DNA from: an uncultured bacterium
Lineage (GTDB): Bacteria > Patescibacteriota > Minisyncoccia > Phycocordibacterales > Phycocordibacteraceae
Length of the DNA stretch: 64,000 nucleotides
Assembly (NCBI GenBank): GCA_903825105.1
Contig: CAIJZI010000007.1
Location: 23,178-87,177 of the forward strand
Direction: 5' to 3'
Shown: positions 3,273-62,459 of the stretch, one piece after another
Position numbering within the stretch: position 1 is the first letter of the stretch
Layout of the letters: every line of letters begins with the position of its first letter
Notes under the pieces: generated by a model
Told to the model about the DNA's origin: nothing
The model's input: only the letters and a program-made list of their open reading frames with translations
Databases searched by the model: none
Program-made: the position numbers and the translations under genes

Positions 3273-5024
3273 ATGTCTTTTTCTAAAATTTTAAATACCC
3301 TCAAAAACGCGTGGCATTCTGTCTGGTTGTATGCGATGAGTCATAAAATAATCGCGACGATCGCGGTCATTATTATTTTAGTCGGCGGATATTATGGCTA
3401 CAAGACACTCACTTCTTCGACAACGACGAGTTATATAACTTCTTCTGTCGCTTCGAGCACGATCGTCTCAACCTTGACCGAGACAGGCCAAGTGAGCGCC
3501 TCACAACAGATTTCCCTCTCGCCAAAATCTTCGGGCGAAGTGATTGGCGTGTATGTGAAGCCTGGCGACGCGGTGTATGCCGGCCAGCTCGTCGCACAAC
3601 TTGATGCCACCGATGCGCGGCAATCACTTCAAAATGCCGAGCTCGCGCTTAAGAATGCAGAAATCACTTATGCTCAAACCACAGCGACCTCGACGCTCTC
3701 GCTCAATCTGCTTCAAGCTCAAAACGCTGTCACAAATGCAAACATCTCTCTTCAAAAGACACACGACAGCATCTATTCCTCTCTCGCGAGCACCTATAAC
3801 GATTTTTCAACCATCGTAACGGGGATCGACGGCGTGCTCCACAATTCTGATTCTGCCGGTCGCTCGAATCAAGAAAATGTTGATGCGTATTCTGACATTG
3901 TTTCTTCACACGACGACAATATTCTGATGTATAAAAATTCTGCAGAGACTTCGTATACTGCCGCGCTCGCGGCGTACAACAGCGGACTCGCCACCTATAA
4001 AGCAGTCAGCGGTACCACCGCTTCAAACGACGATCTCGTCGCCCTCGCGAAGACGACTTATGCCACTGCACAAATAATCGCCGAAGCAGTAAAAAATTCT
4101 CACGACTTTTATGACCGCGTGAATACTGATTATTCTCTTTATAAAAATCTCGGTTCTTCTTCGACAGTTTCTAACCTCCTTTCTTCGATCAATTCATACA
4201 CCTCGCTCGTTTCAACAAACTTGAACAATGCACTGACCGTCCAGACCGACATTGTCTCGGCAGAACAGTCGCTAGCCCAAGCTAAGAACGCGCTCGAGTC
4301 GAGCGCGCAGGGTTCGAATGCGCTCACCGTTCAATCTGCCACTCTTTCACTTCAAGAAGCGAAGGATGCGGTGACCACCGCACAAGAAAATCTCGCGAAC
4401 TATTCTGTCGTCGCACCATTCGCGGGAACAATCGCTTCTGTCGGCGTGCAGAAATATGATCAGGCTAGCAACAATACATCGGTCGCGACGCTCGTGAGCT
4501 ACAACAAGATCGCGACACTCTCTGTTTCTGAAGCAGACGAGGTGAATATTAAACAAGGACAGAAAGCGATGCTCACCTTCGACGCTCTTCCTGATGTGAC
4601 CATCGCCGGCACCGTCGCATCTATTTCTAGCGCGGGGAGCGTTTCTTCTGGAGTCGTCTCCTACAGCGTCGATGTTTCGCTCGACACCGCAAATAGCGAT
4701 ATTAAGCCGGGGATGTCTGTCGATGCCGACATTATTACCGCGACAGCAGACGGCATCGCTGTGCCAAATAGTGCGATTAAGACTTCGGGCAATATAAATT
4801 ATGTTCTCGTTATGTCAGCGGCAACGCCGACAAAAGTCCCGGTCACTATTGGCATCACTGACGGCACGAACACCATCGTCACGAGCGGGTTAACTGGTAG
4901 CGAGCAGGTTGTGACGAAGACGGTCACGAGTTCTTCTTCATCAACTTCATCATCTGCAACAAAAACTACATCATCAAGCACAAATAGGAGCGGCCCTCCA
5001 GGAGGAATAATGATGGGATTATAA
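3273..5024 (+). CDS. efflux membrane-fusion (periplasmic adaptor) protein, HlyD/MacA family, with Ser/Thr-rich C-terminal tail
   Basis: N-terminal TM, coiled-coil and beta-barrel adaptor architecture (..VIGVYVKPGDAVYAGQLVAQLD..); directly upstream of MacB-like ATPase and permease. Confidence 0.65.
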   Translation: MSFSKILNTLKNAWHSVWLYAMSHKIIATIAVIIILVGGYYGYKTLTSSTTTSYITSSVASSTIVSTLTETGQVSASQQISLSPKSSGEVIGVYVKPGDAVYAGQLVAQLDATDARQSLQNAELALKNAEITYAQTTATSTLSLNLLQAQNAVTNANISLQKTHDSIYSSLASTYNDFSTIVTGIDGVLHNSDSAGRSNQENVDAYSDIVSSHDDNILMYKNSAETSYTAALAAYNSGLATYKAVSGTTASNDDLVALAKTTYATAQIIAEAVKNSHDFYDRVNTDYSLYKNLGSSSTVSNLLSSINSYTSLVSTNLNNALTVQTDIVSAEQSLAQAKNALESSAQGSNALTVQSATLSLQEAKDAVTTAQENLANYSVVAPFAGTIASVGVQKYDQASNNTSVATLVSYNKIATLSVSEADEVNIKQGQKAMLTFDALPDVTIAGTVASISSAGSVSSGVVSYSVDVSLDTANSDIKPGMSVDADIITATADGIAVPNSAIKTSGNINYVLVMSAATPTKVPVTIGITDGTNTIVTSGLTGSEQVVTKTVTSSSSSTSSSATKTTSSSTNRSGPPGGIMMGL

Positions 5025-5754: not shown

Positions 5755-6979
5755 AAATGACATTTTAGAAGAGACATACGCTGCCCTTCGCGCGAACAAG
5801 GCCCGCTCGGGGCTCACGATGCTCGGCATCGTTATCGGTATCGCTTCAGTGATCGCTCTTATGGCCGTTGGCACAGGCGCGACAAGCTCGATTACTTCGT
5901 CGATCTCTTCGATCGGTTCGAACCTTCTGATCGTGACGCCCGGGGCGACAAAAAACTTCGGCTTCGGCGCCGCCTCGGCGCGAGGATCGGCGCAGACACT
6001 CACCGTCGAAGATGCTACGGCGATTTCTAACAGCATTTCAAATATCAGCGGGATGTCAGTTGTCGTTTCGAGTCGCACACAAGTGACCACGAAAAATTCG
6101 AACACGAACACTTCGATTACCGGCACCGATCCATCCTATCCGGGTGTGCGCAATGTGACGCTCTCGACGGGCAATTTTATTTCAGATGAAAATGTCGCGA
6201 GCATCGCGAAGGTCGCGGTAATTGGCCCGACCGTTCTCACCGACCTCTTCGGCACAGACGCCGTCGACACCGACTCGATTGGGCAAAAAGTTAGGATTAG
6301 CGGATCACAGTACACCGTCATCGGCGTGACGAAGACGAAAGGCAGCTCGGGCTCGAGTAACGCCGATGACATTATTTATATTCCTTACACCACCGCGCAA
6401 CGCTACCTTTCTGGGAATAAATATCTATCACAAATAAATGTTTCGGCAGCGAGTTCTGACTCAATGACGCAGGTTCAAACAGATATAAACGACCTTCTGC
6501 TCACGCGACACAAGATTACCGATTCTACAAAAACTGATTTCTCGATTACTAATCAGGCTGACCTCGTCTCGACATTATCATCCGTCACCTCGACACTCAC
6601 CTATCTTCTCGGCGCGATCGGCGCGATATCGCTCCTCGTCGGCGGCATCGGCATTATGAATATGATGCTCACCAATGTGACCGAGCGCATGCACGAGATC
6701 GGGCTCCGGAAAGCGGTCGGCGCGAAGAAAAAAGATATCAGCATTCAGTTTCTCGCAGAGTCGGTCGCGCTCACTGTCGTCGGCGGCATCATCGGCATTA
6801 TTCTGGGATGCGCAATCGCGTATGTGGTGAATTGGAGTGGTGTGACGAAAACGAGCGTCACCTTATCATCTGTCCTGCTCGCTTTTGGCGTATCAGCAGT
6901 AATCGGTATCGTCTTCGGCTGGTATCCGGCGAAGCGCGCATCAAACTTAAATCCGATTGATGCACTCAGATATGAGTAG
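5747..6979 (+). CDS. ABC transporter permease, FtsX/MacB family
   Basis: N-terminal TM, large periplasmic domain, C-terminal 3-TM FtsX-like region; start MNKNDIL overlaps the ATPase stop. Confidence 0.75.
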   Translation: MNKNDILEETYAALRANKARSGLTMLGIVIGIASVIALMAVGTGATSSITSSISSIGSNLLIVTPGATKNFGFGAASARGSAQTLTVEDATAISNSISNISGMSVVVSSRTQVTTKNSNTNTSITGTDPSYPGVRNVTLSTGNFISDENVASIAKVAVIGPTVLTDLFGTDAVDTDSIGQKVRISGSQYTVIGVTKTKGSSGSSNADDIIYIPYTTAQRYLSGNKYLSQINVSAASSDSMTQVQTDINDLLLTRHKITDSTKTDFSITNQADLVSTLSSVTSTLTYLLGAIGAISLLVGGIGIMNMMLTNVTERMHEIGLRKAVGAKKKDISIQFLAESVALTVVGGIIGIILGCAIAYVVNWSGVTKTSVTLSSVLLAFGVSAVIGIVFGWYPAKRASNLNPIDALRYE

Positions 6980-7920: not shown

Positions 7921-8466
7921 ATGAACAAAATGATTGCGTGGCTCCGAGAAGGTGCCACTTTCTGGGAGCTTTTTAAGTACCTCCCCGGGCTGATCCTCCT
8001 ACAAATGTTCTTGATTGTTGTAGGAGTCAAATTCGCGGGTCTGTTCTTTTCAGAAGCGTCGATCAACTCTAATGACGCTGTGATCGACACTGTGATCGCG
8101 CATTCCAACTTGGCAAAACAGTTCTTCATATTTACGGTGAAAGATCCCTTTTATGAAGAGGTGTTTTACCGGTTTACTCCATTCTGCGCGCTTTTGGTGT
8201 TGATGTGGCTAAAAAAGACCAAAGATGAAAAGGGTGCGGCGTGGGATGTTGCCGTGTACATTGTGGTTACCTCTGCATTCTTTGGATATGTGCATGGTCC
8301 TGGAGGTATTTTCATTCAAGGCCTGTCGGGCATTGTGCTCGCGATCGTATTCCTAAAATGGAGCGCGCTCGGTGCGAAACTGTTTAAAGGCCTGCTCGCC
8401 AGCACGATAGTGCATGGCGCGTACAATGGCGCCCTGCTGATCATACTGTTAAGTCTCCATCGCTAA
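7921..8466 (+). CDS. CPBP-family (CAAX protease/Abi) intramembrane metalloprotease
   Basis: motifs EEVFYRF (EExxxR), FGYVH (FxxxH), HGAYN (HxxxN); multi-TM. Confidence 0.7.
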   Translation: MNKMIAWLREGATFWELFKYLPGLILLQMFLIVVGVKFAGLFFSEASINSNDAVIDTVIAHSNLAKQFFIFTVKDPFYEEVFYRFTPFCALLVLMWLKKTKDEKGAAWDVAVYIVVTSAFFGYVHGPGGIFIQGLSGIVLAIVFLKWSALGAKLFKGLLASTIVHGAYNGALLIILLSLHR

Positions 8467-13314: not shown

Positions 13315-13365
13315 GTAGCAAGGGTAACCCTTACTACTTTTCACTTGGAAGTCGGACTTCCAAGT
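13315..13365 (-). terminator. twin hairpins downstream of rpoD: CTTGGAAG..CTTCCAAG hairpin plus GGTAACC-loop hairpin
   Basis: ACTTGGAAGTCGGACTTCCAAGT (13343-13365, abuts rpoD stop) and GTAGCAAGGGTAACCCTTACTAC (13315-13337). Confidence 0.55.
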
Positions 13366-26917: not shown

Positions 26918-28861
26918 ATGGACACAAATACACTTCTCGAGGGCCCTATAACAATGACGCGTAAAGGCATTGGGTTCTTTAAGGTCGAAGGGGCTGATGA
27001 GGATCTTCTCATTCCCTCCGAGTGGACCAATCACGCGCTCTCGGGCGACATCGTGAAGGTCGCGCCAATGGGTAAATATAACGACCCTGCAGGGAGAATG
27101 CCGCCAAGAGATTCTGGAAAGGTTGTTGAAATAGTTTCGCGCGCGCGCGAGACATTTGTCGGCACGCTTATCGAAGAAAATGGCGTCACATTTCTCCAAC
27201 CTGATTATAAAAAGATGTATGTGCCACTCGTCATTCTTGATAAAGGGAAAGCAGAACTTGGTGACAAGGTGTTGGCGCGTCTCGGTGTCTGGGATACTGA
27301 TAAAGAATACCCGCTCGGCACGATAGAAGAAATAATTGGTCGAGCGGGCATGCACGAGACCGAGATGCGCGCGCTCGCGCTCGGTCAAGGATTCTCGCCA
27401 ACCTTTCCGCCCGGAGTCCTCGCTGAAGCGAAGAATCTTGAAGAAAACGGCGCAGCGATGCTTCTCGAAGAAACGAAAAATCCTGTGCGCAGAGATTTCA
27501 GAAAAATCAGCACTTGCACTATCGACCCAGTTGATGCAAAAGACTTTGACGACGCTCTTTCTGTTCAGAAACTTGAAAATGGCAATATTGAAGTCGGCGT
27601 GCACATCGCCGATGTTTCTTTCTTCGTGAAGCCCGGAAACGAACTCGACAAAGAAGCTCGCGAGCGAGCGACGAGTGTTTACCTTGTTGATCGCACGATC
27701 CCGATGCTCCCCGAGATCCTCTCGACTGATCTATGCTCGCTGATCCCCAATCAAGATCGTTTGGCTGTCTCTGCGGTCTTCACCCTCGACAAAGAGGCGA
27801 ACATTCTCGACTCGTGGTTTGGCGAAACGGTGATTCATTCTGACAAGCGCTTCACCTATGAAAATGCTCAAGAAGTTTTAGATAATGGAAGCGGGACTTT
27901 GCACGAAGAGCTCTCCACCCTTCTCGAACTCTCTAAAAAAATTCGTGCGAAGCGCCAAGCGAAGGGCGCGATTGAGTTCGACACGGCAGAAGTGAAGGTT
28001 GAATTAAATGCTGAAGGCGCTCCAATCGCGATTCATTTAAAAGAACGAAAGGCGACGAATCTTCTGATCGAAGATTTCATGCTGCTCGCCAACGAAGCGG
28101 TCGCGAAGCATCTTTCTAAATTAACCAGCGACGGCGGAGCCTCATTTGAATCGCTCTACCGAATTCACGATGCACCTGATGCTGACCGCATCGAGAATCT
28201 CGCGAACCTGCTCCGCGTGATGGGCTATAACTTAAAGACTGCGAGCGGGCGAGTCACGGGCGCAGAATTAAACAGGATGCTCGAATCGGTAAAAGGAAAG
28301 CCAGAAGAATATTTAGTAAAGACGGCGACCCTGCGCTCGATGAGTAAAGCGATTTATACGACACGCAATATCGGTCACTTCGGTCTCGCCTTCGACTACT
28401 ACACACACTTCACCTCGCCGATTCGCCGCTATCCAGACCTCATTATCCATCGCCTCGTGAAGTCGCACAGTGGCGGTGATCCGATTTCAAAACAAGAAAT
28501 GAGCGAATTCGATGCGCTCGCGCGCCACGCTTCAGAACGCGAAGTCGCCGCGGCTGATGCTGAACGCGATTCGATAAAAATGAAGCAAGTCGAATTCTTA
28601 ATCGGCAAAATCGGTGAAGAATTCGATGCAGTGATTTCTGGTGTGACCGATCGCGGGCTCTATGTTGAAGAACAATCAACGCATGCTGACGGAATGATAA
28701 ACATTCGCGCCGTGGGCGATGATTATTTTGAATATGACGAAAAGCATTATCGACTCGTCGGTCGCCGCACCCATAAAGCGTTTCAACTCGGCGACCCCAT
28801 CCGCGTGAAGCTCGCCGCCGCCCGCATCGCAGAAAAGGAATTGGATTTTGTACCGGTGTAA
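26918..28861 (+). CDS. rnr: ribonuclease R (RNB family 3'-5' exoribonuclease)
   Basis: cold-shock/OB N-terminus, RNB catalytic domain (..CTIDPVDAKDFDDALSV..), C-terminal S1 domain. Confidence 0.85.
   Translation: MDTNTLLEGPITMTRKGIGFFKVEGADEDLLIPSEWTNHALSGDIVKVAPMGKYNDPAGRMPPRDSGKVVEIVSRARETFVGTLIEENGVTFLQPDYKKMYVPLVILDKGKAELGDKVLARLGVWDTDKEYPLGTIEEIIGRAGMHETEMRALALGQGFSPTFPPGVLAEAKNLEENGAAMLLEETKNPVRRDFRKISTCTIDPVDAKDFDDALSVQKLENGNIEVGVHIADVSFFVKPGNELDKEARERATSVYLVDRTIPMLPEILSTDLCSLIPNQDRLAVSAVFTLDKEANILDSWFGETVIHSDKRFTYENAQEVLDNGSGTLHEELSTLLELSKKIRAKRQAKGAIEFDTAEVKVELNAEGAPIAIHLKERKATNLLIEDFMLLANEAVAKHLSKLTSDGGASFESLYRIHDAPDADRIENLANLLRVMGYNLKTASGRVTGAELNRMLESVKGKPEEYLVKTATLRSMSKAIYTTRNIGHFGLAFDYYTHFTSPIRRYPDLIIHRLVKSHSGGDPISKQEMSEFDALARHASEREVAAADAERDSIKMKQVEFLIGKIGEEFDAVISGVTDRGLYVEEQSTHADGMINIRAVGDDYFEYDEKHYRLVGRRTHKAFQLGDPIRVKLAAARIAEKELDFVPV
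28812..28861 (+). repeat. copy 1 (native) of rnr 3'-terminal repeat
   Basis: ..CGCATCGCAGAAAAGGAATTGGATTTTGTACCGGTGTAA; reiterated at 29391-29440 and 29783-29818. Confidence 0.8.
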
Positions 28862-28899
28862 AAGTAGTTTCTTTAAACTATTTCCGTGTGAAAATATAG

Positions 28900-29286
28900 T
28901 TGATGGATAAAAATTTTGACGAATGGAACGAGTGTAAAAAGAACCGTGACAAAAATGATATTGATATTTATTTTTACGAGCGTGAGATTTGGTGGTGCGC
29001 CATTGGTGTAAATGTAGGATTTGAACAAGATGGGAAAGGTGAGAGATTCGCCCGACCAGTGCTTATAATAAGAAAATTCAGCAAAAATGTATTTCTCGGC
29101 GTTCCACTTACAACAACAAAAAGAGAAAGTAAATATCATCATTCGTTTCCTTTTCTTGAAGCAGAGAGTACTGCGCTTCTTTCGCAAGTACGACTTTTTG
29201 ATTCAAAGAGATTACTTGTAAAAATGGGTAAAGTTTCAGAAAAAATACTTGAGGATGTGCGAGAAAGAGTACGAAAGATCGTCTAG
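28900..29286 (+). CDS. MazF/PemK-family toxin-like endoribonuclease, no adjacent MazE-like gene
   Basis: ..GFEQDGKGERFARPVLIIRKFSKNVFLGVPLTTTKRE.. aligns with MazF core (GSEQ..RPAVVLS....VPCTT). Confidence 0.5.
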   Translation: MMDKNFDEWNECKKNRDKNDIDIYFYEREIWWCAIGVNVGFEQDGKGERFARPVLIIRKFSKNVFLGVPLTTTKRESKYHHSFPFLEAESTALLSQVRLFDSKRLLVKMGKVSEKILEDVRERVRKIV

Positions 29287-29390
29287 AAATTGTTTGAGCC
29301 GCTCTTGCGAGCGGCTCGAGCCCGAAGGCCATTTGTTCAGTTAGTATATACGCCACGCATTGAAAGTCAAATGATGTGTGTGGACAGTCA

Positions 29391-29440
29391 CTGCCGCCGC
29401 GCGCATCGCAGAAAAGGAATTTGATTTTGTTCCTGTGTAA
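29391..29440 (+). repeat. copy 2 of rnr 3'-terminal repeat (47/50 identical to copy 1, keeps stop codon)
   Basis: CTGCCGCCGCGCGCATCGCAGAAAAGGAATTTGATTTTGTTCCTGTGTAA. Confidence 0.8.
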
Positions 29441-29530
29441 TTTATTTTTTATTTGGCAGAGAAATACCTAAATCTTTACAAATCTTGCGCGCCATAAAAG
29501 AATCTATTTCAGAGTGCCGCGGAACAGTGC

Positions 29531-29758
29531 TTATACAATCATTTTTTGGATTCCAAAATATCGTTCACGAACAAGTGAATTACTGCGAGAATTTGTGCGC
29601 TTTGTGAGCGCGCGTCGTGCGAGTAGAAATTCAGAAAGCGCATCTGATAAATTTTCTTTTGCTTCTTTCTTCGAAGAACCCTGCGTATTTACGCCAGGAA
29701 TTTCTTCAAGCCATGCGATATATCCCGTGCGGACTTTTTTATAAATGGCTGTATACAT
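29531..29758 (-). CDS. HicB-family antitoxin-like protein (UPF0150/RNase H-like fold)
   Basis: MYTAIYKKVRTGYIAWLEEIPGVNTQGSSKKEAKENLSDALSEFL matches HicB N-domain consensus (Y.A....dGgY.a..Pe.PG..tqG.T.eEA..n..eA). Confidence 0.45.
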   Translation of the reverse strand: MYTAIYKKVRTGYIAWLEEIPGVNTQGSSKKEAKENLSDALSEFLLARRALTKRTNSRSNSLVRERYFGIQKMIV

Positions 29759-29782
29759 ATCTGAAAGTATACCACACCACAA

Positions 29783-29818
29783 ATTGCCGAAAAAGAATTG
29801 GATTTTGTTCCGGTATAG
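29783..29818 (+). repeat. copy 3 of rnr 3'-terminal repeat (short; encodes IAEKELDFVPV*)
   Basis: ATTGCCGAAAAAGAATTGGATTTTGTTCCGGTATAG. Confidence 0.7.
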
Positions 29819-29820
29819 CC

Positions 29821-29843
29821 AGTGAGAGACTAAAGCTCTCACT
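29821..29843. repeat. hairpin motif AGTGAGAG-NCTAAAG-CTCTCAC, copy 1 of 3
   Basis: AGTGAGAGACTAAAGCTCTCACT; other copies at 32547-32568 and 33072-33093. Confidence 0.6.
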
Positions 29844-29860
29844 ACAAAATTATAAAAGCA

Positions 29861-32122
29861 CTATTTCGCCACGGCGACGGCTTCGTCGAACTTAATCGAC
29901 AGGAGTTTGGAAACGCCATCGCCGCCCATCGTGACGCCGTAGAGAATGTTGGTGCGGCTCATCGTCTCGCGGTTGTGTGTGATGACAATCAGCTGTGATT
30001 TCTTCGCGAGATTTTCTATCATATCGCCATAGCGACGACTGTTCGCTTCGTCGAGCGCCGCGTCGGTCTCGTCGAGAATGAGGAATGGTGGCGGGTTCAC
30101 CTGATTCATCGCGAAGATAAGCGCGATCGAAGTGAGTGCGCGTTCACCGCCCGAGAGCTGCATCAACGAGCGTATTTTCTTTTTCGGCAGACTGATCGTA
30201 ACTTCGATGCCAGCGCGCTGTTTCTCTTTTACTTCGTCAGCTGATTCCTCAGCATCTTCGGACTCATCTAATGAGTCCTCGACTTCCGGCTCCGGTTCTT
30301 CAAGAATGAGTCGCGCGGAGCCTCCGCCAAACATAAGAGCGAAATATTCACTGAAGGAGGCGTTCACGCGTGCGAGTCCATCACTAAAATATTTCGCGAG
30401 TTCGGTATCCAAATCGTGAATGAGCGCGCGAAGCCCCGCCGCCGACTTCGCGAGATCGTCGAGCTCGACTGCGAGGAATGTCTCTCTCTGCGAGACTTCT
30501 TTATGTTCCTGCCGAATATCCTCGCCGCTCCCGCCCGCTTCTTCGAGACGAATTTTATTTCGTTCCAATTTATGCTTGCGTTCCTCCTGCTCACGGCGTT
30601 CTTTCAATTCTTGATCTGAAAGGGTAATCGGTTCATACACCACTGCTTCTGTCCCAGCGACAGCGATTACCTCCCTCTTATTTCTTTCGAGATCTTCTGC
30701 AAAAACGGTCAATTCATATTCACGCGCTTCTGCCTTCGCGACCTCGCCTTCTTGATGTGCCTTTTCTTGTGCAACATCTAGAATGCGGCGGCGGATCTCG
30801 CGCCCCGTTTCTTCAAGCACGACCATCGCCTCGCGCGCTTTCGCGCGTGCTACTTCTGCCTTACCGAGCGCGTCAGACGCTTCTTCATATTTCTTCGCGA
30901 GCTCTGCGCGCTCTGCTTCAAGTTTAAAGGCTGCATTTTCTTCTTCAGAGAAATAATCGTCGCGTGGCGCGCCGTGTCGGGTGAAAAAGAATTTTATCGC
31001 CGAGCGAATCGCAGTCAGCGCGGCGCGCAATGCCTCGGGAGTAACCTCGGCACCTCCGGCGCCCAAAGCGCCTTCGGCTTGTTCGATTTGCTTCTCGATT
31101 TCTTGATGAAGAGACTCGATTTCTTCCCGTGGCACTTTCGCGTACGGCTCGTTCGCGACCCGCGTCGCGCGACGCTTTACCTCCGCGAGAGCACCTTCGA
31201 CGCGGCCGATCTCCCTAGAGAGCGCCGCGCGTGCCGCTGCGAGTTCTGACACTTCTTTTTCTGCATTTCGCAGCGTTTCAGTTCTCTTCATCGTCTCGCT
31301 ATCAGCCGACTGCGAATCGGTAATATGATCAAGCTCTTTATTCGCGGTAGCGAGATTCTCGGCCGCACGCATTTTTTCTTCAGCGACTTTTATTTTTTCG
31401 TGTGCGAGATACGCGTCTTCAATCGAGAAGTAAGTTTGCGCCGCGCTGATTAATTCTTTTCGCAGGTTTTCTGCTTTATCTAATTTTTCAACCTGCTTTT
31501 CTAGAAATTTTAGATGCGGCGCGAGCTCGCGACGCAGAGAATTGACTTGTGCGATATTTTCTTCAGTCTTTATGAGTTTTTTCTCAGCTTCTTGTTTTTT
31601 AAATTCGTAGAGTTTTAATCCGAGAGCATCCTCGAGCATCTCTCTGCGTTCGCGAGGGCTCGCGATAAGGATTCGATCTGCTTCGCCCTGCGAAATGATG
31701 TGGTGACCGGTCTCGCCGATGTTCGCGCCCGCGAGCAATTCTTCGATATCACGCAGGCGCACCCTTGACCCATTAATCGAATATTCACTCGTCCCGTCAC
31801 GGAAGACGGCGCGCTCGATCGTCACTTCATCAAAATCAATTTTGAACGCTCGACGCGAATTGTCGAAAATAACTGCCACCGCCGCGCGCGACGCGCGCGG
31901 CACCGAATGCGAACCGTTCCAAATTAAGTCTTCAGCGCGCTTGCCGCGCATACTCTTCATCGACTGTTCGCCCAGCGCGAAGCGAAAAGCTTCGGCGACA
32001 TTACTCTTCCCTGAGCCGTTGGGCCCCACGATCGCGGTCGCCGCGCTCGGGAAATCTAAAATCGTCTTCTTGGCGAATGACTTAAATCCGACGATCTCGA
32101 GTCGCTTTAACATTACCCTCAT
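29861..32122 (-). CDS. smc: SMC chromosome-segregation ATPase, short hingeless form (753 aa)
   Basis: canonical SMC N-terminal head (LKRLEIVGFKSFAKKT..IVGPNGSGKSNVAEAFRFALGEQSMKSMRG), long coiled coil, C-terminal LSGGERALTSIALIFA..ILDETDAALD; no hinge-like G-rich segment; rnc nearby as in rnc-smc operons. Confidence 0.7.
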   Translation of the reverse strand: MRVMLKRLEIVGFKSFAKKTILDFPSAATAIVGPNGSGKSNVAEAFRFALGEQSMKSMRGKRAEDLIWNGSHSVPRASRAAVAVIFDNSRRAFKIDFDEVTIERAVFRDGTSEYSINGSRVRLRDIEELLAGANIGETGHHIISQGEADRILIASPRERREMLEDALGLKLYEFKKQEAEKKLIKTEENIAQVNSLRRELAPHLKFLEKQVEKLDKAENLRKELISAAQTYFSIEDAYLAHEKIKVAEEKMRAAENLATANKELDHITDSQSADSETMKRTETLRNAEKEVSELAAARAALSREIGRVEGALAEVKRRATRVANEPYAKVPREEIESLHQEIEKQIEQAEGALGAGGAEVTPEALRAALTAIRSAIKFFFTRHGAPRDDYFSEEENAAFKLEAERAELAKKYEEASDALGKAEVARAKAREAMVVLEETGREIRRRILDVAQEKAHQEGEVAKAEAREYELTVFAEDLERNKREVIAVAGTEAVVYEPITLSDQELKERREQEERKHKLERNKIRLEEAGGSGEDIRQEHKEVSQRETFLAVELDDLAKSAAGLRALIHDLDTELAKYFSDGLARVNASFSEYFALMFGGGSARLILEEPEPEVEDSLDESEDAEESADEVKEKQRAGIEVTISLPKKKIRSLMQLSGGERALTSIALIFAMNQVNPPPFLILDETDAALDEANSRRYGDMIENLAKKSQLIVITHNRETMSRTNILYGVTMGGDGVSKLLSIKFDEAVAVAK

Positions 32123-32189: not shown

Positions 32190-32468
32190 ATGCCAATTAA
32201 CATCAGTGACCACGCAAAAGCAGAGGCAGAGGCAACGAGAATGGCTGTTGATAGACTCAGTCTTGAGCTCTTGGCATATGTGCGTGTGGATCGGCGCACA
32301 TTTACCTCTTATCTGAGGAAGTACGCGGAAAAGATCGACGATCAAACGGATGAGGATTTTGCGACTGGCTACAGCAATTCGGCACGGAGACTTCGCAGGG
32401 CGAGCTTCGCTCAAGGAGACCTTCCGCCCAGCGTCCGAGCCCCCGAACGGATGGATCCACGCGATTAA
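32190..32468 (+). CDS. hypothetical protein (92 aa), orphan
   Basis: GGAGG SD 6 nt upstream of ATG; followed by strong terminator; no family recognised. Confidence 0.35.
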   Translation: MPINISDHAKAEAEATRMAVDRLSLELLAYVRVDRRTFTSYLRKYAEKIDDQTDEDFATGYSNSARRLRRASFAQGDLPPSVRAPERMDPRD

Positions 32469-32483
32469 ACCACGCAACACCAC

Positions 32484-32522
32484 GGGCCGCCTGAAATCAG
32501 GCGGCCCGATTCTTTTTATTTT
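32484..32522 (+). terminator. rho-independent terminator (module duplicated at 33007-33046)
   Basis: GGGCCGCCTGAAATCAGGCGGCCC then GATTCTTTTTATTTT. Confidence 0.75.
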
Positions 32523-32523
32523 A

Positions 32524-32568
32524 CTTAGGTGTCTCGCCGCTAAGTTAGTGAGAGCCTAAAGCTCTCGC
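32524..32568. repeat. 24-bp sequence identical to lipase CDS (262-285) followed by AGTGAGAG..CTCTCGC hairpin (copy 2)
   Basis: ACTTAGGTGTCTCGCCGCTAAGTT exact at both loci. Confidence 0.7.
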
Positions 32569-32645
32569 TTGGGGGCCGGACACCCAAGCTGCCAACTCGC
32601 TTGTGTAGCAAGGTTAAACCTCGCTAAAACGACCCCTCGAAAAAC

Positions 32646-32700: not shown

Positions 32701-32991
32701 ATGCCAAACATTGTTATTGTTGGATTCAAACCTGGGGAGCTTCCAATTGTGAGAGGCCGGATTTCAATCATTGTCACAGGACTTGGAATTGCCGGGGCTG
32801 ATGGTGTTATCACTTGTTTCCAAAACGCATCAGCCGTAGATATAACAAAAGAACACAACGACGCCCCGTACGTCATCGTCCGCGACACAGAAGAAAATCG
32901 TGCAATGTTGATCGCGAGGGAGATCAACCTCAAACTGAATGTCGATGTCGAACTGGAAGTTCTCCACGCATTCTTGCCGAAGAGACATTGA
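32701..32991 (+). CDS. hypothetical protein (96 aa), orphan
   Basis: SD AAAGGAAAGGGTGG; followed by terminator near-identical to 32484-32522. Confidence 0.35.
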   Translation: MPNIVIVGFKPGELPIVRGRISIIVTGLGIAGADGVITCFQNASAVDITKEHNDAPYVIVRDTEENRAMLIAREINLKLNVDVELEVLHAFLPKRH

Positions 32992-33006
32992 GCATGTCCG
33001 CACCAC

Positions 33007-33046
33007 GAGCCGCCTGAACAAGGCGGCTCGATTCTTTTTACTTTTT
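33007..33046 (+). terminator. rho-independent terminator (duplicate of 32484 module)
   Basis: GAGCCGCCTGAACAAGGCGGCTC then GATTCTTTTTACTTTTTT. Confidence 0.75.
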
Positions 33047-33047
33047 T

Positions 33048-33093
33048 ACCGAAGTTTAACTTCGGTATTTTAGTGAGAGTCTAAAGCTCTCAC
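33048..33093. repeat. hairpin ACCGAAGTT-TAA-CTTCGGT plus AGTGAGAG-TCTAAAG-CTCTCAC hairpin (copy 3) overlapping rnc stop codon
   Basis: seen directly. Confidence 0.6.
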
Positions 33094-33779
33094 CAATTCA
33101 TTTTTTTAAGACCTGCTTCGGCGGCGAGCTGTTCGGCTTCTTGCTTACTCTGCCCTTCGCCCCGAGCGATTTCTTTTTCACCAATAAAAACACCGACGGT
33201 AAAGGTGCGTGCATGGTCCGGCCCCACTTCTGAAAGGGTTTCGTAGCGCGGCGTGATGCTCTTCTTTTCTTGTGACAATTCTTGGAATCGACTCTTCGCG
33301 TCCTGGTGTGCACCTTTTGAAATTATTTCGTCAATTTTTATATATACATTTTTTGCAATAAAAGCTTCTGCTTTTTCATATCCAGAATCCAAATAAATCG
33401 CGCCGATAATCGCTTCAAATGCGTCAGCGAGAATCACATCGCGCGCGCGGCCCGTGTCCTTCGACTCGCCTTTTGAAAGCAACATATAATCATTCACGCC
33501 AAGCGCCTTCGCGCTCTCGGCGAGCGACACCGTGTTTACCAAGGCCGCGCGATAGCTCGTGAGCTCGCCTTCTGATTTCGCGGGGAATTTTTTAAAAAGA
33601 AAATCCGTCACGACCAGTTCAAGCACAGCGTCACCGAGGAATTCTAATCGCTCATTATGACTGCCCACATAGTCGCGGTGTTCGTTTAGGTACGAACGAT
33701 GCGTCAAAGCCTCGATGAGAAGGTTTTGATTATTAAATTTGATATTGAGTTCGTTAGAAAATTGAAGAAAATCAGGCAT
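33090..33779 (-). CDS. rnc: ribonuclease III
   Basis: RNase III signature ERLEFLGDAVLELVV, C-terminal dsRBD. Confidence 0.9.
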   Translation of the reverse strand: MPDFLQFSNELNIKFNNQNLLIEALTHRSYLNEHRDYVGSHNERLEFLGDAVLELVVTDFLFKKFPAKSEGELTSYRAALVNTVSLAESAKALGVNDYMLLSKGESKDTGRARDVILADAFEAIIGAIYLDSGYEKAEAFIAKNVYIKIDEIISKGAHQDAKSRFQELSQEKKSITPRYETLSEVGPDHARTFTVGVFIGEKEIARGEGQSKQEAEQLAAEAGLKKMNW

Positions 33780-61686: not shown

Positions 61687-62187
61687 CTACAAGCCCTGTG
61701 CGTTCGTAGTATATACCGCACAAGCAGAAGTCGATCGGTTAGGATCGCCAAGTCCACTACCCGCTTCGGTACTTCCATAACACGCTAGTGAAGACGGGCA
61801 GTTATAGAACATATATTTATAATCAGCTCCGCCAATAGGGCTGTCATAGGCATAGCAACAGAGAGAACCTCCATCTGTTTGAGAATCAAGAGGAAGTTGT
61901 TTAATGTAATTAGGGACAAGTCCTGGTATCGCACCATTTTGTGTCGTTTGTGTACCGAGAGTTGAGCAGGCGCTATACCAAACACCATTGGTACTTGGAT
62001 ATTTACCCCCATTATCATTCGCATACATCTCAATCGCCATTTGTACGGATCGAAGATTTGAAACACGCTGTGCGTCATACCCCTTCACGCGAGCAGAGTT
62101 AATCGAAACAATCACAACCGAAGACAATACGCTAATGATTGATATAACGACGAGCAACTCTATCATTGTGAAGCCACGATTTTTCAT
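61687..62187 (-). CDS. type IV pilin / pseudopilin
   Basis: ..KNRGFTMIELLVVISIISVL.. Confidence 0.7.
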   Translation of the reverse strand: MKNRGFTMIELLVVISIISVLSSVVIVSINSARVKGYDAQRVSNLRSVQMAIEMYANDNGGKYPSTNGVWYSACSTLGTQTTQNGAIPGLVPNYIKQLPLDSQTDGGSLCCYAYDSPIGGADYKYMFYNCPSSLACYGSTEAGSGLGDPNRSTSACAVYTTNAQGL

Positions 62188-62195
62188 AGTGTTAT

Positions 62196-62459
62196 TCATT
62201 GTGAAATTGCCCGCGGCCACGAAGCGCTCCAAGGCGTTTGGGGTGCGAGGCTTGAACTACCGAAAATAAACGGAAGAGCAACGGCAATAATAATGAAAAA
62301 AATGGCGACCACAAGCAACACATATTTTGCCTGTTCGTCTGTAGAAACAATTTTCGTAGAGAGCACGAGCCGTATGAAAAATGGCTTCAGCTCAGCCTCC
62401 CAAGAGGCAGTGGCACTTTTCTGCCCCTCATCCTCATCAAAGGTAATTTCTCCTTCCAT
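62196..62459 (-). CDS. hypothetical small membrane protein
   Basis: ORF with TM helix (VLLVVAIFFIIIAVALPFIF). Confidence 0.25.
   Translation of the reverse strand: MEGEITFDEDEGQKSATASWEAELKPFFIRLVLSTKIVSTDEQAKYVLLVVAIFFIIIAVALPFIFGSSSLAPQTPWSASWPRAISQ

Follow-up and report, generated by a model that had tools for sequence, protein, structure and literature searches.

The locus described here raises the question of how the 3' end of a housekeeping gene can come to be present three times in a row, with a small cargo between the copies. It lies in a stretch of 64,000 nucleotides (the window) of contig CAIJZI010000007.1 from an uncultured bacterium of the Patescibacteriota, where the end of rnr, the gene for RNase R, is repeated in the region between rnr and the convergent smc gene. 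The three gene ends (tails) enclose two small cassettes with genes related to the MazF/PemK and HicB families. Comparison with related genomes shows that insertions took place successively behind rnr, that the repeats are derived from the target, that an intact rnr end was rebuilt, that lineages exchanged material at this site, and that no recombinase is encoded in cis. As the mechanism we favour recombinase-independent "insertion with long target duplication", in which a selection filter, recombination with imported DNA and the use of tails as homology arms act together, and we put the probability of this complete reading at about 0.5.

Three rnr tails at the rnr-smc junction

The features of the junction are given below in window coordinates.

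26918..28861, plus strand: rnr, encoding RNase R (647 aa), the target gene; Pfam RNB (1.3e-112), CSD2 and OB_RNB, with an S1-type C-terminus
28814..28861, plus strand: tail copy 1, the functional rnr end, last 15 codons and TAA
29393..29440, plus strand: tail copy 2, a displaced rnr end that kept its stop, outside any translatable open reading frame (ORF)
29783..29818, plus strand: tail copy 3, a displaced rnr end, last 11 codons and TAG
29821..29843, no strand: palindrome AGTGAGAGACTAAAGCTCTCACT, between tail copy 3 and the smc stop
29861..32122, minus strand: smc (753 aa), convergent neighbour of rnr; Pfam SMC_N (5.4e-69)

The initial annotation had reported three direct copies of the rnr end, each retaining a stop codon, and direct reading together with a repeat search agreed with its coordinates and description. 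The stop codons of copies 1, 2 and 3 are TAA, TAA and TAG, the reading frame is kept in all of them, and each copy encodes IAEKE[L/F]DFVPV followed by the stop. Copy 2 is identical to copy 1 at 44 of 48 nucleotides, the differences being three synonymous changes and one change from L to F. Copy 3 differs from copy 1 at five positions over 33 nucleotides, all of them third codon positions and synonymous. A degenerate 23-nucleotide pattern matched the 64 kb three times, exactly at the three tails, with 0.00 matches expected (100 shuffles).

The inserts between the tails are 531 nucleotides (28862-29392) and 342 nucleotides (29441-29782) long, and their cargo consists only of mazF, a candidate small RNA, and hicB with a remnant of hicA. 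Of this cargo the plus-strand MazF/PemK-like ORF and the minus-strand HicB-like ORF had been recognised before and were confirmed by Pfam, but the hicA remnant and the convergent small-RNA gene had been overlooked. The GC content is 36-44% in the insert compared to 48-56% in the flanks; this AT-richness would fit a foreign origin and was counted in favour of the mechanism that we prefer. The surroundings are a conserved housekeeping stretch with trmD, rpsP, rnr, smc, rnc, nusB and others. The palindrome AGTGAGAGACTAAAGCTCTCACT has three copies in the window, all around smc.

A search with RNase R gave 160 related loci (numbered with the prefix L below) from Kaiserbacteria/Paceibacterota genomes and metagenomes, 129 of them unique and 112 with both gene ends. 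Among these 112 loci the rnr-smc gap ranged from -7 to 3119 nucleotides, being at most 10 nucleotides in 18 loci, 11-100 in 13, 101-500 in 28, 501-1000 in 23 and more than 1000 in 30. Empty sites in which smc directly follows rnr, for which the initial annotation had proposed to look, are present in the 18 loci with the shortest gaps; at empty sites the two stops are 0-9 nucleotides apart or the ORFs overlap by 7 nucleotides. The arrangement is not uniform, as the relatives carry 0, 1 or 2 extra tails with differing cargo. Nucleotide BLAST with all functional tails as queries detected 30 extra rnr tails in 25 loci, all in direct orientation. Extra smc 3' ends were found in 12 loci, and one layout seen often was [rnr tail - X - smc tail] - Z - [rnr tail - Y - smc tail]. 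The junction cargo included the same hicBA unit in 12 loci and an IS200/RAYT-like Y1 transposase in 13 (RAYT, REP-associated tyrosine transposase; REP, repetitive extragenic palindrome), besides several small-ORF families, short palindromes and also ordinary genes in some lineages. At the rnr site the repeats measured 27-75 nucleotides. Their left boundary varies, with a cluster at -19 to -26 across different cargoes, and the boundary mode coincides with the start of a GC-rich GCCGCCGCCCGC run. Taken over all loci, the comparison shows the rnr-smc junction to be a hot spot for small selfish cassettes.

The duplicated smc ends measured 15-70 nucleotides and were located in L007 (~3400-3470), L046 (~8076-8140), L054 (~6690-6735), L044 (~4446-4480) and L016 (7995-8078), and also in L010, L029, L032, L083, L123, L131 and L137. 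In L016 the working smc tail is written in AT-rich codons, and the displaced copy resembles the lineage consensus.

The source of the window is probably a metagenome-assembled genome, in which reads of strain variants could have been mis-joined. However, different genes lie between the tail copies, which have diverged at 4 of 48 and 5 of 33 sites, the architecture is repeated in 24 other loci (species) from independent projects, and intact hicBA units of ~480 nucleotides stand between two tails in L015, L045 and L076. An assembly artefact, which the initial annotation had named as an objection to its own claim, is therefore highly improbable.

Displaced tails as former gene ends and the origin of the repeat

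If the displaced tails had once been working gene ends, their differences from working tails should be of the kind found in coding sequence. Differences between extra and working tails were distributed over codon positions 1, 2 and 3 as 34:30:162 (chi-square p = 3e-33); counted by codon, 136 differences were synonymous and 47 non-synonymous. Since the tail copies were detected by nucleotide search, this count is not biased by the search. The third-position share was 0.72, compared to 0.43 +/- 0.03 (maximum 0.51 in 500 runs) when duplication in situ and subsequent neutral drift of the displaced copy were simulated, and 0.93 when both copies were constrained. We conclude that most of the divergence arose while both copies were coding, in different lineages, and that the displaced tails were working gene ends.

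Some of the extra tails are closer to the working tail of another species than to their own (91% vs 77% in L001, 90% vs 74% in L021 and 93% vs 77% in L032). Judged by these identities, some tail alleles derive from other lineages. Locus L045, which has hicBA and two tails, and the empty locus L143 have rnr bodies that are 94% identical; their divergence spans from about -65 nucleotides in rnr to about +55 nucleotides in smc, and the distal tail of L045 equals the working tail of L143 over 36 nucleotides. The same pattern was found for the pair L081 and L002, which are 98.8% identical. Both pairs indicate that junction alleles were exchanged by recombination, with crossovers just inside both genes.

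The mazF cassette is also present at other sites. In L162, a locus from another species with a 72% identical MazF, it is located behind an ABC-F ATPase gene and flanked by a 62-nucleotide, 98% identical repeat consisting of the last ABC-F codons and the stop, the single difference being synonymous. The repeat spacing is 583 nucleotides in L162 compared to 579 in the window. As the repeat is taken from the ABC-F gene in one case and from rnr in the other, it is derived from the target and is not an attachment (att) site borne by the element. At the mazF cassette of L167 a 15-nucleotide repeat of a terminator arm was found. A 50-nucleotide, 96% identical repeat (L180 1396-1445 and 1961-2010) surrounds a 55%-identical mazF cassette; this is not a clean case, as the repeat takes in the -35 of the cassette's own small-RNA promoter and more cassette fragments lie upstream, and the arrangement suggests that the cassette was amplified in tandem or circularly permuted. 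By eye, the rnr repeat and the ABC-F repeat share a motif (CCGCATCG ... TGGATTT), but its spacing differs (21 vs 17 nucleotides) and it was taken as chance.

These data bear on the possibility that a replication error came first, with template switching or slippage where rnr and smc meet head-on producing a tandem duplicate of the gene end. The space between the two tails would then be a neutral landing pad for unrelated cassettes that arrive later, in events separate from the duplication. Tails without cargo, 78-80 nucleotides apart and with only a palindrome between them, are indeed found in L001, L043, L084, L137 and L145, as are smc tails 79-83 nucleotides apart in L010, L016, L029, L054 and L123, and a scaffold of this kind inherited by descent would give the common -19 boundary. 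The third-position bias argues against this order of events, because most divergence arose with both copies coding. So does L162, where the 98% identical repeat brackets exactly one mazF cassette behind an unrelated gene, so that duplication and insertion are linked in time. We consider replication error as the first step unlikely.

Small palindromic elements were observed at and near the junctions. Several species have scattered copies of a GC-rich palindromic element, CCGCCCGCCCCGTTAGAAATCTGATTTCTAACGGGGCCCGC. It is intergenic at L021 3029 and L104 1466, is inserted in frame within rnr at L142 4590-4635, adding GPVRNQISNGAGG, and lies in frame between rnr tails 78-80 nucleotides apart in five species (L001, 6930-6970; L084, L137, L145 and L011). 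The window palindrome family CCACTTGGAAGTTGAACTTCCAAGT has four intergenic copies, at 13341, 16987, 24169 and 25231, which are probably terminators. In L074 the 30-nucleotide rnr-smc gap is filled by a related palindrome, TTGGAGGCCGGGCCTCCAA.

The two cassettes and the search for a recombinase

The cassettes between the tails contain the following features.

28872..28900, plus strand: promoter-like site for mazF, TTTAAA-17-TATAGT, from a consensus scan only
28903..29286, plus strand: MazF/PemK-like toxin gene without an adjacent protein antitoxin; Pfam PemK_toxin (1.5e-11)
29284..29338, minus strand: candidate small RNA, convergent with mazF, with two hairpins having UUCG and GCAA loops
29343..29370, minus strand: promoter-like site for the small RNA, TTGACT-16-TATACT, 10/12
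29445..29564, minus strand: hicA remnant, C-terminal 40 residues only; tblastn and alignment with L015 and L076
29531..29758, minus strand: HicB-like (UPF0150) antitoxin gene, intact; Pfam UPF0150 (1.4e-6)
29767..29775, minus strand: putative extended -10-like box TGGTATACT for hicB, between hicB and tail copy 3

The MazF-like ORF matched PF02452 with 44.9 bits (cut-off 23.1). An alternative TTG start is present at 28900, and homologues begin at the ATG (28903). A total of 440 MazF homologues, mostly of 127 aa, were found in Patescibacteria. No ORF for a MazE/PemI-type protein antitoxin fits beside mazF in the window, with 38 nucleotides upstream and only the small-RNA element downstream, and the homologues are likewise solitary, in at least 10 different genomic neighbourhoods. 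The small-RNA element was present behind every solitary mazF homologue examined, also at L161 3513-3600, L162 3283-3375, L163, L167, L171, L172 and L183. Seven loci with MazF proteins only 67-90% identical to that of the window share an invariant 44-nucleotide core of the small RNA, and both promoter hexamers are positionally conserved in 7 loci. The predicted fold has -24.8 kcal/mol (z = -4.9), and Rfam gave no match for the region. From this pattern we infer a convergent small-RNA gene behind mazF, whose RNA may be the antitoxin to a toxin of the MazF family. Carriage of the mazF cassette by phage was rejected, as its 20-nucleotide invariant core had no exact match in viral contigs. A circular mini-element was rejected as well: the 591-bp contig with the closest MazF homologue is linear and has no terminal repeat.

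Sequences resembling DnaA boxes were seen in some cassettes. In four relatives a small non-coding cassette ahead of the distal rnr tail contains a cluster of such 9-mers (TGTGGATAA with no more than one mismatch; L081 2860-2960, L011 2260-2330, L015 ~5770 and L137 ~7575), and in most mazF cassettes one lies 5-12 nucleotides past the small-RNA promoter at the right end (L183 565-575, L163, L161, L180 and window 29375-29385). As a general feature of cassette ends the motif was rejected. It was found before 6 of 30 tails compared to a 2% background, but in few cassette types: apart from the mazF cassette family and two Y1-transposase loci, only the small non-coding cassette has it.

In the second cassette, the HicB-like ORF scored just above the cut-off (28.6 bits compared to 27.3), and homologues with 79-86% identity are located at the same position in 11 relatives. 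The hicA remnant is 62.5% identical to residues 25-64 of the intact HicA of L015 (tblastn), a protein belonging to Pfam HicA_toxin. Compared to the intact cassettes of L015 and L076, a deletion of ~95 nucleotides took the hicA start (the first ~24 codons) and the hicB end. The window module has a HicB-like antitoxin ORF and no intact HicA toxin. The sequence agtatacca likewise precedes the distal tail in L044, L045 and L032.

The initial annotation had explained the locus by serial site-specific integration with target regeneration, comparable to tRNA-gene islands or integron-like accretion, while noting no integrase in the window. Indeed, no integrase or recombinase was found among the 30 suitably sized ORFs of the window, and the ORFs around the inserts are housekeeping genes. 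The 104 gap ORFs examined in 80 relatives included none either, the sole mobility gene being the IS200/RAYT-like Y1 transposase. The part of the explanation that survives is that the insertions were successive and rebuilt an intact rnr end; the site-specific integrase, and with it the reading as a tRNA-type island or integron, is not supported in view of the absence of an integrase from these ORFs, the repeat lengths of 27-75 nucleotides, the duplicated smc tails and the ABC-F repeat of L162. Nor is there a fixed att core, as the mazF cassette has the rnr repeat in the window, the ABC-F repeat in L162 and none at 7 sites, although the left-boundary mode at -19 to -26 leaves a slight doubt on this point. 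The separators are copies of coding sequence, unlike those of an integron, and no IntI-like ORF was found, a formal attC model not having been run. The cumulative GC skew falls steadily over the 64 kb without a switch at 29.8 kb. A terminus or dif site was rejected, the local skew peak at 30 kb being only an effect of gene orientation, and an Xer/dif element likewise found no support in the skew, with the dif consensus compared by eye only.

A tyrosine or serine recombinase could also act in trans and integrate small circular cassettes at an attB in the rnr tail. Models for this are staphylococcal cassette chromosome (SCC) elements at rlmH, integrative mobile elements exploiting Xer (IMEX) or pdif modules, and integron cassettes. 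Such an enzyme would account for direct repeats of constant orientation and for left boundaries that cluster at -19 to -26 despite different cargoes, and the arrays resemble SCC-type composites that lack a recombinase. At synonymous sites the extra tails also resemble one another a little more than do randomly drawn sets of working tails (0.514 compared to ~0.45, a value reached by 8 of 2000 resamples). On the other hand, no candidate was present among the 30 window ORFs or the 104 gap ORFs, the repeat length is variable, smc tails are duplicated as well, and the mazF cassette has a different 62-nucleotide repeat elsewhere and none at 7 further sites. Moreover, L045 lacks the native segment from -65 to -26, which simple circle integration would retain, and the locus is off any GC-skew switch and hence is no dif site. 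A recombinase in trans is a doubtful explanation.

The Y1 (HUH) transposase of the relatives offers a further route, since an IS200/RAYT-like enzyme might nick hairpins, mobilise neighbouring DNA in trans and thereby make tail copies. A Y1_Tnp protein (Pfam 2.1e-7, above the cut-off; best NCBIfam match REP-associated tyrosine transposase, 45.6 bits with a cut-off of 80) is found at the rnr-smc junction in 13 relatives with its own palindrome on both sides. Tail copies start 0-35 nucleotides from these palindromes, 9 of the 13 loci have an extra rnr tail, and the mazF cassette ends in strong hairpins. Yet the 64-kb window has no homologue of the transposase, its palindromes are unlike those beside the gene, and the hicBA and mazF cassettes are present in many loci without it. 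To our knowledge, IS200/IS605-type transposition yields no long target duplication. We find this route quite improbable. The relatives resemble REP/RAYT systems in having a single Y1 transposase gene with cognate palindromes, but none is present in the window, and the link to the tail repeats is positional only.

The Y1 gene (217-260 aa) was seen in L006, L007, L020, L023, L033, L037, L046, L054, L060, L083, L094, L110 and L121, flanked by one of three palindrome types, TTAGGACATCGGATGTCCTAA, TGTGCAACACCAGGTGTTGCACA or ATGGACATCGTAAGTCCAT. A further palindrome copy is located within the Y1 coding sequence in L006, L023 and L060.

Insertion with long target duplication as a proposed mechanism

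Restriction-modification genes are inserted with long (>30 bp), variable target duplications and without a mobility gene, mostly in naturally competent species, and some of the duplications overlap gene 3' ends (PMC2853133). The sources for "insertion with long target duplication" of restriction-modification gene complexes are Nobusato et al. (2000), as cited by Furuta, Abe and Kobayashi, and the latter paper itself (2010; PMC2853133). Apart from the restriction-modification cargo, the criteria of Furuta et al. are target-derived direct repeats of more than 30 bp, an empty related site with one copy, no integrase or transposase, and an insert of less than 20 kb. At our locus the repeats of 48 and 36 nucleotides continue the rnr ORF (62 nucleotides in L162), empty sites are present in 18 of 112 loci with L143 as the empty counterpart of L045, and the inserts of 531 and 342 nucleotides contain no mobility gene. 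The cargo departs from the restriction-modification type, being PemK/MazF and HicB/HicA. What is shared is thus a small addiction-type unit of deviant GC content with variable repeats that align with the single copy of a relative. In contrast to the restriction-modification insertions, the cargo here consists of toxin-antitoxin RNases, to which the proposed DNA-breakage property is inapplicable; the insertion is serial (three tails), uses one junction in 25 loci and hits both convergent genes; and the displaced copies have a coding-type divergence that points to exchange between lineages.

In the mechanism that we favour, recombinase-independent insertion with long target duplication, there would be no neutral DNA at the junction, and only insertions that rebuild a complete rnr or smc 3' end would survive, which may be why every copy runs to the stop. 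Imported DNA of related strains or species would pair with the recipient via the conserved gene end. For the first insertion we envisage one homologous junction in the gene end and one illegitimate or microhomology junction inside the resident tail, the latter preferentially at the GC-rich GCCGCCGCCCGC run ~19-26 nucleotides before the EKELDF codons. The incoming tail would then become the working end and the resident tail would be displaced downstream. With a cassette between two tails, the distal tail could serve as a right-hand homology arm of 36-62 nucleotides, and the [tail-cassette-tail] unit could enter genomes with a conserved rnr end, whether empty or occupied, by two-arm homologous recombination. 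The newest units would be added beside rnr with older ones further outward, and an integron-like array would build up with no integrase involved. Whole junction alleles would also be swapped, with crossovers ~55-100 nucleotides inside rnr and smc.

Bacteria of the candidate phyla radiation (CPR) are thought to be naturally competent. In the window, a pilin-like ORF with an N-terminal methylation motif (61687-62232, minus strand) could belong to a type IV pilus or to a competence apparatus.

Several observations weigh against this mechanism. A test for the native copy against the eight nearest relatives was a draw (16 to 11 with 1 tie), the tails being short and the species distant. Among the seven GAGTTAGATTTT loci the proximal tails resemble one another no more than the gene bodies do (0.78 vs 0.77), and with an identity not above that of the gene body a recent spread of this proximal tail as a unit was rejected. 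Seven of 11 distinct mazF contexts, the window included, have no flanking repeat, so duplication is not obligatory. The clustering of left boundaries near -19 may be due to an enzyme with sequence specificity, or to an inherited tail-spacer-tail scaffold, and not to microhomology. The genome and metagenome collections held no strain-level relative of the window (best protein identity 82%), and donor and recipient can therefore not be named for it; exact-protein look-ups of its RNase R and MazF also found nothing. The natural competence of the organism is an assumption, and no junction was caught in the act.

The locus can be compared with other known systems. SCC and SCCmec elements accrete in tandem at the 3' end of rlmH (orfX) in staphylococci, with repeats that hold the last codons and the stop. 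Some SCC elements lack a recombinase of their own, and the repeat of SCC is a short, fixed core at which Ccr serine recombinases cut. Tandem accretion at a gene 3' end with such repeats is found here as well, but without a detected recombinase, with repeats of 27-75 nucleotides having variable ends, and with units of only 0.4-0.6 kb. Integron arrays and the pdif modules of Acinetobacter plasmids contain tiny cassettes, promoter-poor or rich in toxin-antitoxin genes, with a recurring separator. The very small cassettes set apart by a recurring sequence are a common trait; the separators at our locus are copies of host coding sequence and not attC hairpins or 28-bp XerC/D sites. The minimal mobile elements of Neisseria exchange cassettes between two conserved genes by homologous recombination in the flanks. 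They share with the rnr-smc junction the different cassettes at one site and the crossovers in the flanking genes (L045/L143 and L081/L002), but neither duplicate gene ends nor form tandem arrays.

A second mini-insertion site lies 2.6 kb away in the smc-rnc gap, which is 968 nucleotides long in the window and 9-1681, mostly 9-40, in relatives. It contains two orphan ORFs (32190-32468 and 32701-32991, both plus strand), each followed by a copy of a 92/94-nucleotide direct repeat (32478-32569 and 33001-33094). The repeat consists of a terminator and palindromes, ends in AGTGAGAGNCTAAAGCTCTC and brackets the second ORF of 96 aa. The two ORFs had no Pfam match and no homologue in the 160 loci. 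Mini-insertions flanked by long repeats are thus not peculiar to rnr in this genome.

CPR bacteria (Patescibacteria) have tiny genomes with few classical mobile elements, and how they exchange accessory genes is poorly understood. The junction shows a way, used repeatedly and in at least 25 species, for tiny addiction modules to enter between essential abutting genes without damage and without an element-encoded recombinase. It would extend "insertion with long target duplication" from restriction-modification to toxin-antitoxin systems, which are unable to cut DNA. This removes DNA breakage as the explanation and points to a host process such as transformation and recombination; we know of no mechanism established for these insertions since 2000. 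With the coding-type divergence of displaced tails, the replacement of a tail by imported DNA can be tested simply from sequence, and genome-wide, and the locus is a natural design for testing the spread of cassettes via short homology arms. More tentatively, duplicated gene ends may be portable homology arms with which cassettes spread lineage-wide by transformation and RecA and stack without integrase, att site or transposase, toxin-antitoxin modules being the main passengers in CPR bacteria. If this were true, the tail repeats would themselves be the mobility device, and their passengers would include a MazF with a convergent small RNA.

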